From the NCBI GenBank assembly GCA_030141605.1, contig JAQGDQ010002380.1, positions 1-64,000 on the forward strand: a DNA stretch of 64,000 bases, given 5' to 3'. Source of the DNA: Tubiluchus corallicola (lineage: Eukaryota > Animalia > Priapulida). Made by a program: the position numbers and the translations under genes. Position 1 is the first letter of the stretch; the number at the start of each line of letters is the position of its first letter. This document shows, piece by piece, positions 33,301 through 36,300 of the stretch. Below the pieces are notes generated by a model that did not search any database, had not been told where the DNA came from, and worked only from the letters and a program-made list of their open reading frames with translations.

Positions 33301-36300
33301 CTCCCTTTTCCGCGACCACTTCTCTCGCGGGTTTAGATGTGTGTGTGTGTGTGTGTGTGTGTGTGTGTGTGCGTGTGGAGATTTATTTCAAACGCCAAAG
33401 TTCGATAAATGCATTTTCACAAATCTTTTTTTATTGATGGATTACAAAAAATTTTTTTTACATTTTTTATGCAAAATACATACGTGCTAAAACTAGATTA
33501 TTATTATTATGGTGACATGATAGTTCTACATTTTACGTTTTTTTCGCAAATTACACAAATTACGCAAAATTACAGTAAAACTACACTAATGACGACGAGC
33601 GAGTACATGGATTGTCGTCGTCGATGTGATACAGACAAACGTTATTGTTGTTAAAAACGAATTCGTTAAATTTGCGGAAAACGCGAGAGAAATCCTCGAC
33701 CTTTGTCCCGCCCATCATTATTATGCTTCCGGTGTGAAAAATGTTCAGAGTAATTTGCTCGCATTTGCAAGTTAGTTTGGGAAATAGTTCCACTTCGTAA
33801 AACACTTCTCTAAAAGAATGCGTCGAAGGACGAACGAGTTCTTCGTACAGTGCACCCAGTTTCAATCTGCAGCGAATTTTGGCTCTGGCGGTGATGGTGC
33901 GAATTGCGATCCCGTCGGCGGGCGTCAGTCCGAGACCTTTCGAGAGTTCTTCGATCGCATTGCGTAGTGCTTTTTCCTCCGAAAAACCGTTGGCCACCAC
34001 GGAGCCGGAGGCAAAAATCATCAGCGTCCCGCCCAGTCGCTTTAGCAGAACCATTTGCGGTTTCCTTTCGTAGCGTCTTCCGCCTGTTCTCCGCCAGAGT
34101 TCGTTCAGATCGAAGCGCTGCGAGAACGAAGCAGTGGCGACGATGTTGACCGTTTGGACTGACACGTTAGTACGTAGTTGGCAATCGTTTCGGACGCCCG
34201 AACCGCTCTGCCTCGTCCGTTGCTCTGCCAACGTATGGCGGGCGGCGGGTGCTCGCTTTCCAGATCTTCTACGCGTATGACCACGCGATTTTTGGGGAGA
34301 TGTTTTTTGACGAAATCGTACATCTCTGCTCCCTTGACGTAGGTGATCCTGCCTCTGGTGGTCTGTCGTAGAATGTTTTCCAATTCTGCGTACTCGATCA
34401 TTCCCTCCTCCCACGAGATGCCGTGTATGTGTCTGATTAGGTAGTTGTAGGTGGATCGCTTGTGCTGGGGAACGCGATTCCAGGGGTGGGGCGGTTTGAA
34501 GGTGTAGTTGTGATATATGCCGGTCTCTATTTCGCGAATTACCAAATTTTTGACCAGGTATTCTTCTTTTCCGCACTGGAAGGCATCTACGGTGAGAACT
34601 ATGCTCGATTCAGACATCTGTGACGATGGGGGGTCCTTCTACGCCGTCGGCAACGAGTTTTCCTTCGATGACGATTTGCTTGTGATTGTTCACAAATTCC
34701 AGAGACTTGATTTTTTCGAAGGTGTATTTTTTTATGACCTTGTTGGGGGCACTCTTGCGTGCGTTGGCGCGCTTGCCGCCCCGCGTCCCCGCTTGTTGTT
34801 GTTGCTTGCGAGGAACGGTGGTTAGAGGTTGTTTGAAATCCTGCAAGAGAAGAAGAACAATAGTTATAGTATTGTTGTTCGCTAACGACAACTAGGCATT
34901 TTTGATGAGCCATTCTTTCAGATTTCTAGGTTTTTTGGGGGCAGTGGGGGTGAGCACCATCGGCGGCGATGGAGGGGGCGTCGCGGAAATTACGAGTTTG
35001 TCTTCTTCTTTATCATCATCTTTCTCCTCTTCCTCCTCCTCCTCTCGAAAGATGTCCATTCGTGTCCCTCTCTCGCGTCTGCTTTTACACGGAGGGGCGG
35101 AGGTGCCGACGTCCGTGTCTGGCAGACTTCTTTCCGTCCAGTTTGTCCAGTTCCTCGCAAGCAACAACAACAAGCGGGGACGCGGGGCGGCAAGCGCGCC
35201 AACGCACGCAAGAGTGCCCCCAACAAGGTCATAAAAAAATACACCTTCGAAAAAATCAAGTCTCTGGAATTTGTGAACAATCACAAGCAAATCGTCATCG
35301 AAGGAAAACTCGTTGCCGACGGCGTAGAAGGACCCCCCATCGTCACAGATGTCTGAATCGAGCATAGTTCTCACCGTAGATGCCTTCCAGTGCGGAAAAG
35401 AAGAATACCTGGTCAAAAATTTGGTAATTCGCGAAATAGAGACCGGCATATATCACAACTACACCTTCAAACCGCCCCACCCCTGGAATCGTGTTCCCCA
35501 GCACAAGCGATCCACCTACAACTACCTAATCAGACACATACACGGCATCTCGTGGGAGGAGGGAATGATCGAGTACGCAGAATTGGAAAACATTCTACGA
35601 CAGACCACCAGAGGCAGGATCACCTACGTCAAGGGAGCAGAGATGTACGATTTCGTCAAAAAACATCTCCCCAAAAATCGCGTGGTCATACGCGTAGAGG
35701 ATCTGGAAAGCGACCACCCGCCGCCCGCCATACGTTGGCAGAGCAACGGACGAGGCAGAGCGGTTCGGGCGTCCGAAACGATTGCCAACTATGTTCTAAC
35801 GTGTCAGTCCAAACGGTCAACATCGTCGCCACGGCTTCGTTCTCGCAGCGCTTCGATCTGAACGAACTCCGGCGGAGAACGGGCGGAAGACGCTACGAAA
35901 GAAAACCGCAAATGCTTCTGCTAAAGCGACTGGGCGGGACGCTGATGATTTTTGCCTCCGGCTCCGTGGTGGCCAACGGTTTTTCGGAGGAAAAAGTACT
36001 ACGCAATGCGATCGAAGAACTCTCGAAAGGTCTCGGACTGACGCCCGCCGACGGGATCGCAATTCGCACCATCACCGCCAGAGCCAAAATTCGCTGCAGA
36101 TTGAAACTGGGTGCACTGTACGAAGAACTCGTTCGTCCTTCGACGCATTCTTTTAGAGAAGTGTTTTACGAAGTGGAACTATTTCCCAAACTAACTTGCA
36201 AATGCGAGCAAATTACTCTGAACATTTTTCACACCGGAAGCATAATAATGATGGGCGGGACAAAGGTCGAGGATTTCTCTCACGTTTTCCGCAAATTTAA

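Follow-up and report, generated by a model that had tools for sequence, protein, structure and literature searches.

A conserved, element-borne TATA-binding protein in a palindromic Maverick-like fragment of the priapulid Tubiluchus corallicola

How Mavericks and adintoviruses, which lack an RNA polymerase of their own, time the expression of their capsid genes is a question touched by a small gene in the priapulid Tubiluchus corallicola. In the 64,000 nucleotides analysed here (contig JAQGDQ010002380.1, hereafter the window), a palindromic element carries in each arm a gene for a divergent TATA-binding protein (TBP), and it may be asked what this protein is, where it came from and what it could do for an element (Table 1). 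The Fig. 5 legend of PMC8502044, like its preprint, gives TBP among the gene labels of MELD viruses that have an adintovirus-like PolB, and TBP lies outside the eight conserved vertebrate Maverick ORFs (PMC8097293; PMC8502044). That legend label apart, no function or promoter box of a Polinton TBP was found in the literature searched, which included PMC11161782, 10.64898/2026.10.13.758929 and the supplement of PMC8502044 and had most subscription papers outside its scope.

Table 1. Features of the palindromic element, in window coordinates.
Feature	Positions	Strand	Basis or remark
Palindromic Maverick/Polinton-like element fragment, 4,758 bp	32590..37347	.	GC, mirror, ends, flank contigs
Left terminus AGTAGG, 5/6 of the Maverick (AGT)2 motif	32590..32604	+	
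Two AATAAA hexamers, candidate polyadenylation signals downstream of the TBP stop	33382..33435	-	
Divergent two-lobed TBP, left copy	33581..34165	-	Begins GTG, first ATG 34054; Pfam, AlphaFold2, alignment
170-aa ORF, overlaps the TBP start by 20 codons	34105..34617	-	
Basic ORF-X lacking an ATG; preceded by an acceptor-like pyrimidine tract that ends at 34841	34610..34840	-	
9-nt inverted microhomology, left side of the inferred fold-back junction	34808..34816	+	
Unique spacer between the arms, 333 nt	34817..35149	.	
Truncated acidic/proline-rich ORF in the spacer	34892..35158	-	
9-nt inverted microhomology, right side	35150..35158	+	Inverse of 34808-34816
170-aa ORF, mirror copy	35349..35861	+	
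TBP gene, mirror copy	35801..36391	+	Pfam; comparison with left copy
Right terminus, exact (AGT)2//(ACT)2 motif	37333..37347	-	

The left TBP frame is open over 194 codons and matches the Pfam TBP family (PF00352) in two stretches (E 2.3e-22, 79 bits against a cut-off of 22.9). The mirror copy matches with E 4e-22 and differs from the left copy by 4 residue changes in the 183 codons compared and a 2-codon length change in the tail. AlphaFold2 with a 15-sequence alignment returned the full saddle of ten strands and four helices (pLDDT 90.9, pTM 0.84), superseding a single-sequence model with a pLDDT of 33. Foldseek placed cellular TBPs at the top of its PDB matches (3oc3_C, E 2.4e-11, rmsd 1.9 Å), with identities of 17-27% to the TBPs among those matches and 22-23% to human TBP chains, and its search of BFVD gave 46 viral matches at E ≤0.001, in which viral TBPs ranged from E 1e-10 to 1e-3. 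The protein is as such a member of the TBP family, and the two-repeat fold that an earlier, sequence-only reading had seen in both arms is borne out by the profile matches to both copies and by the model of the left one.

The residue assignments of that reading also hold when the left copy is set against a canonical plant TBP (P0006, from the profile search). Three of the four intercalating Phe of a canonical TBP are retained (F51 in IFAS, F128 in ELFP and F143 in IFHT), the repeat-1 loop is changed to YERKPQM, some 5 residues shorter and without the first Phe, the repeat-2 Asn has become Thr (T90), and the TFIIB-contacting Glu are kept (E124 and E126). Both Glu are common, occurring in 126 and 131 of 146 aligned rows, and are thus not distinctive within the hit set. 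In addition, Val has become T92 and Leu N141, several basic contacts to the DNA backbone are gone, and helix 2, stripped of its basic TFIIA/TAF1/Mot1/Brf1 patch, carries a net charge of -1 against +4 in the plant protein. Of 27 positions taken to be DNA-facing from TBP structures, 24 are identical to P0002, the one homologue found by word search (59% identical), against 56 of 107 at other sites (p 4e-4), and only 8 of the 27 agree with canonical TBP; strand residues are in any case often better conserved than helices. Judged from these comparisons, the residue changes appear to be the mark of a clade and not of decay. The two C-lobe Glu are described as TFIIB contacts and the N-lobe basic cluster as binding TFIIA, TAF1, Brf1 and Mot1 (PMC7221094). 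For canonical TBP, PMC3142196 attributes the kink at the first two base pairs to the C-lobe Phe pair and that at base pairs 7-8 to the N-lobe pair. Since the C-lobe pair is whole here and the N-lobe pair half lost, an altered 3' half-site is predicted.

The profile search returned 415 proteins at E ≤0.001, the best 150 of which were listed, and 146 of the 152 proteins collected were aligned. Four derived states of the DNA face (first Phe absent, Asn to Thr or Ser, Val to Thr, and Leu to Asn, His or Asp) occur together in 11 of the 146 rows, P0002 lacking the first-Phe loop by truncation only, and 94 rows show none of them; the window TBP has all four. A second tree, built under a mixture model, took in 61 rows, of which 55 were picked from the 146 after the first tree and 6 are TBPs from the element loci described below. 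Here the window TBP falls with P0002, P0003, P0005, P0007 and the locus TBPs in one set of 18 rows that stands apart from canonical eukaryotic TBPs. Of the placement against TBP, TRF2 and viral TBPs that the sequence-only reading had proposed, the element clade stands in this tree (support 99/94) and is weak in the first, 146-row tree (support 48); the TRF2 side yielded nothing, as neither tree has a row identified as an animal TBP or TRF2 and none of the hits was TRF2-like. Long branches may also pull the clade together. Nesting within canonical eukaryotic TBPs is rejected under the mixture model with 61 rows (p-AU 0.007) and is not rejected under LG+G4 with 146 rows (p-AU 0.116). Taken together, alignment and trees make it likely that the window TBP belongs to a TBP clade of Maverick/adintovirus-like elements. 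This membership had gone unrecognised in the earlier reading, as had the probable fold-back and the missing ATG discussed below.

The element that carries the gene has a GC content of 0.49, compared with 0.35 in the rest of the window, and its mirror symmetry ends at its termini, the flanks being unmirrored. Both ends carry the (AGT)2//(ACT)2 motif that, like (AG)3//(CT)3, marks Mavericks when joined to terminal inverted repeats, the right end exactly and the left in five of six letters, and flank contigs from public runs stop at 32590 and resume at 37348. No target-site duplication of 4-10 bp was found within 6 bp of either end. These ends, the palindrome, the flank contigs and the states shared with element TBPs support the mobile-element origin that the earlier reading had assigned to the gene. 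Contig depth over the element is about 100 times that of the flanks in runs X1, X3 and X4, a ratio that is not a copy number and suggests a high-copy family; run X5, which bears the same species label, contains next to none of the element words searched, which is no proof of absence. No pPolB, integrase, ATPase, protease or capsid gene occurs in the 4.76-kb locus or in the 59 other window frames scanned.

How the palindrome arose is indicated by its centre. The right arm starts inside ORF-X, at one side of the 9-nt inverted microhomology, and 35158 is where contigs of X1, X3 and X4 (5, 3 and 1) depart from the window sequence. Between the arms, 12 of 1,004 coding bases differ, and over 2,238 columns there are 56 mismatches and 51 gap columns. 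Most likely, one end of an element folded back on itself by template switching at the microhomology and left this locus as a defective copy, and a fold-back over the 333-nt loop would mean that the genes are single in the parent element. Such a fragment most likely depends on complete copies elsewhere. An alternative that we consider unlikely is that the palindrome represents an internally deleted element with long gene-bearing terminal repeats, or else an assembly artefact. Polintons with gene-bearing terminal inverted repeats of about 2 kb have been described (10.1101/2025.02.07.637071), and the divergence between the arms, the absence of a target-site duplication and the fact that none of the contigs listed spans the junction would suit either version. 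However, the right arm begins in ORF-X at the microhomology exactly where the other contigs depart, and a mirror that ends at the element termini argues against a read-level artefact. At 32439-32590 the left flank is matched by contigs of three samples that run on into non-element sequence, which in the one checked comes from outside the window; this hints at an empty allele and a rearranged right flank.

On the coding strand the order is the truncated acidic ORF, ORF-X, the 170-aa ORF, TBP, the two AATAAA hexamers and the terminus. The 170-aa ORF has no family match in Pfam and no homologue in database searches, and shows a weak likeness to an ORF of locus L008, described below (pairwise E 8e-5, 18% identity); exonuclease-like is a tentative label for it. 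The acidic ORF and ORF-X lie in one frame, divided by a single TAG and the acceptor-like tract. Their joining by splicing or readthrough would be unusual because intact Mavericks are described as intronless.

Elsewhere in the window, Pfam applied to the 59 other frames found exons of host genes, namely a RhoGEF-PH gene at 45991-46215 and 48720-49091 (+; E 9e-14 and 5e-6) and a GH18 chitinase-like gene at 61762-62046 (+; E 1e-22). A second large inverted repeat, without a clear ORF and perhaps a foldback or MITE-type element, occupies 172-7364, and its arms (about 172-2112 and 5338-7364) agree at 95-98%. Dispersed inverted copies of a short repeat lie 45 kb apart at 10562-11077 and 56420-56949 (86-89% alike). 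Tandem arrays are present at 53994-54854 (36-nt units) and 62867-63936 (55-nt units), and the 36-nt array accounts for a 241-aa ORF at 54089-54814.

The gene neighbourhoods of relatives could be followed in metagenomes. P0031, a row with the derived states, led to 11 metagenome loci, of which 10 share a gene set by ORF likeness and L013 was excluded as no element locus. A survey of Polinton-like elements for TBP, which the sequence-only reading had proposed, is in this way answered positively: the TBPs of adintovirus/Polinton contigs adjoin a packaging ATPase and an integrase, with PolB present in the longest contig. A first metagenome scan and further scans of viral contigs yielded no TBP element locus, and two viral-contig matches (L001 and L002) were dropped as antisense matches in phage tail genes. 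In locus L008, Pfam recognised among 15 ORFs a PolB (E 2e-21), an rve integrase (E 2e-14), PLA2, KilA-N and TBP, and a weak IVa2-like ATPase adjoins the TBP. Positions 1-18415 of L008 form a near-complete adintovirus-like element with a zinc-finger PolB and an integrase-chromodomain protein, in which large ORFs may be capsid genes and a uniform YATAAAC box stands before many genes. None of these 15 ORFs, drawn from 18.4 of the 23 kb, matches a TFIIB family; the remaining 4.6 kb of the contig may hold a viral TFIIB.

Across four loci related to one another, for which the motif was picked after inspection of the data, 24 of 37 ORF starts have YATAAA[CT] in the 80 nt before them, compared with 7-10% of plus-strand windows drawn at random. 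In its strict form, YATAAAC, in which position 7 is C, the box stands before all four ATPase genes and none of the four TBP genes, two of which have TATAAAT upstream. Neither YATAAAC nor late genes were found in the window element. The locus TBPs are about 22% identical to the window TBP, with no tblastn match at E <1, so the box of these relatives need not be the box of the window TBP. Nor does reading such a box call for a special factor, since a crystal structure of canonical TBP on a C(-25) variant of the TATA box exists (1qn3).

With these observations, we think it fairly probable that the TBP of the element clade is a promoter-selective factor for a TATA-like box of its own, which would recruit host TFIIB and Pol II to late genes. 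The reading builds on the fold, the residues, the tree grouping, the gene neighbours and box of the relatives, the ends and the palindrome, and its binding steps would run as follows. The intact C-lobe (F128, F143, E124 and E126) would grip the 5' TA step and host TFIIB; the lost N-lobe Phe and several lost basic contacts would alter the reading of base pairs 7-8, which fits the C at position 7 of the relatives' box; loss of the basic helix-2 patch would free the protein from control by TFIIA, TAF1 and Mot1; and translation would begin at GTG. Made early and out of reach of the N-lobe regulators, the TBP would point host TFIIB and Pol II to late (packaging and capsid) promoters, which is the likeliest model given the conserved altered face, the relatives' box, the TFIIB-contacting Glu and the lost basic cluster. 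The redirection of Pol II to element promoters suggested in the sequence-only reading thereby gains indirect support from the altered but conserved DNA face and the promoter-like box of the relatives.

The protein could also be a generic TBP substitute that uses ordinary TATA boxes and boosts transcription by escaping Mot1, TAF1 and TFIIA, with no specificity of its own. The charge of helix 2 suits this idea, viral TBPs have been argued to escape these regulators (PMC7221094), and it is mainly position 7 that sets the box of the relatives apart from the consensus TATA(T/A)A(A/T)(A/G) (PMC2396422). A generic substitute nonetheless sits poorly with a DNA face that is canonical at so few sites yet so largely kept in P0002, and with a box that is uniform before ATPase genes and missing before TBP genes, and we regard it as rather improbable.

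Whether the gene can be expressed in this host family depends on its start. The TBP frame has no ATG before 34054, and the model places strand 1, helix 1 and strand 2 upstream of that codon, all of which would be removed by starting there. At 34165, where relatives have their first Met, both arms have GTG with an A at -3, and neither arm contains a stop or frameshift. A 753-nt high-depth contig of a second study keeps the frame open and the GTG in place, its 4 differences all lying elsewhere. A divergent X5 contig has neither ATG nor GTG at the matching codon (30 loose letters, compared by eye), which counts against a conserved GUG start, and P0002 was called from an inner Met only. GTG is the most likely start, at slightly better than even odds; a spliced-in first exon is an unlikely second, and the lack of any usable start a little less likely again. 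Acceptor-like sites do precede ORF-X and the 170-aa ORF. Splicing at a CAG just inside the fold start was rejected, its branch-like motif lying only 7 nt upstream, too short a branch-to-acceptor distance, and splicing to 34118, which also looks like an acceptor, would cost the protein its conserved first strand. For a fusion of the 170-aa ORF to TBP by a -1 frameshift, the TBP frame does stay open for 148 codons upstream (chance 0.002-0.02 by codon shuffling), but near the end of that ORF there is no canonical slippery site, with one imperfect site at 34549, and we do not favour this reading. With no ATG at the fold start, the intronless structure given in the earlier reading is plausible. That the gene is dead in this host family, its start codon lost and its spread reliant on the factors of other elements, is about as improbable as a generic role: the absent ATG, the fragmentary locus, the annotation of P0002 and the X5 contig would be expected of a dead gene, but the open frames with GTG in both arms and in the second-study contig, and the A at -3, would not.

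The titration of TFIIB offered by the earlier reading is poorly supported. The protein would then damp host transcription as a TFIIB sink and not read DNA, which might account for contact Glu that are kept while several basic DNA-backbone contacts are lost; a pure sink, however, needs no conserved DNA face, and here the altered face is the best-conserved part, three intercalating Phe are kept and the relatives' box is positioned, making this very unlikely. Finally, a decayed host TBP or TRF retrocopy captured by the repeat, which the first AU test did not reject and for which animal TBP and TRF2 are absent from the trees, is scarcely credible given the mixture-model AU test, the derived states shared with element TBPs, the open frames of both arms and an identity to human TBP far below the approximately 40% between TLF and TBP (PMC3142196).

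The promoter-selective reading can be set beside known systems. The element resembles Mavericks, Polintons and adintoviruses (PMC8097293; PMC8502044) in its ends, long inverted termini, GC-rich compact ORFs and very high contig depth, whereas the fragment, unlike them, is without PolB, integrase, ATPase, protease and capsid genes and a 6-bp target-site duplication. With cellular TBP (3oc3, 1cdw, 1ytb) the window protein shares the ten-strand saddle, three Phe, the strand-1 Asn/Val/Thr and both Glu, but differs in its low identity (22-27%), short repeat-1 loop, three substitutions (Asn to Thr, Val to Thr, Leu to Asn), missing basic patch and lack of an N-terminal extension. TRF2/TLF/TBPL1 is likewise a divergent TBP paralogue, and TRF2 is tied to non-TATA promoters; TLF binds TFIIA (PMC3142196), and TRF2/TLF has a Trp at N-lobe L5.1 (PMC7221094) where the window TBP has Phe51, which sets it apart from that group. 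The TBPs of large DNA viruses (NCLDV, ASFV B263R and the herpesvirus BcRF1/ORF24 type) are similarly virus-borne and have lost the N-lobe regulatory signature, and in beta- and gamma-herpesviruses such factors choose which late viral promoters host Pol II uses. In contrast, most large viruses of this kind have their own TFIIB, and the first Glu survives in no more than about 40% of their TBPs (PMC7221094). The factors of herpesviruses are big multi-domain proteins, while the window clade consists of a bare core of 165-195 residues with both Glu, carried by small elements.

To summarize, the gene encodes a genuine and conserved TBP that belongs to a distinct clade carried by mobile elements; here it sits in a fragment that is probably a defective fold-back, and it varies a known viral TBP strategy. 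The value of the locus itself is limited, as it is a fragment. More tentatively, animal Mavericks and adintoviruses could possess a one-protein late-gene switch in which a minimal TBP reads a TATA variant of the element, plugs into host TFIIB and ignores TFIIA, TAF1 and Mot1, to which this lineage would add a non-AUG start and fold-back mini-elements that titrate the TBP or supply it in trans. The protein would be a natural TBP of changed specificity, predicted to keep, it seems, host TFIIB as its partner, unlike most large-virus TBPs. If this is true, a bare TBP core and its own box would make the smallest known viral device for promoter switching.
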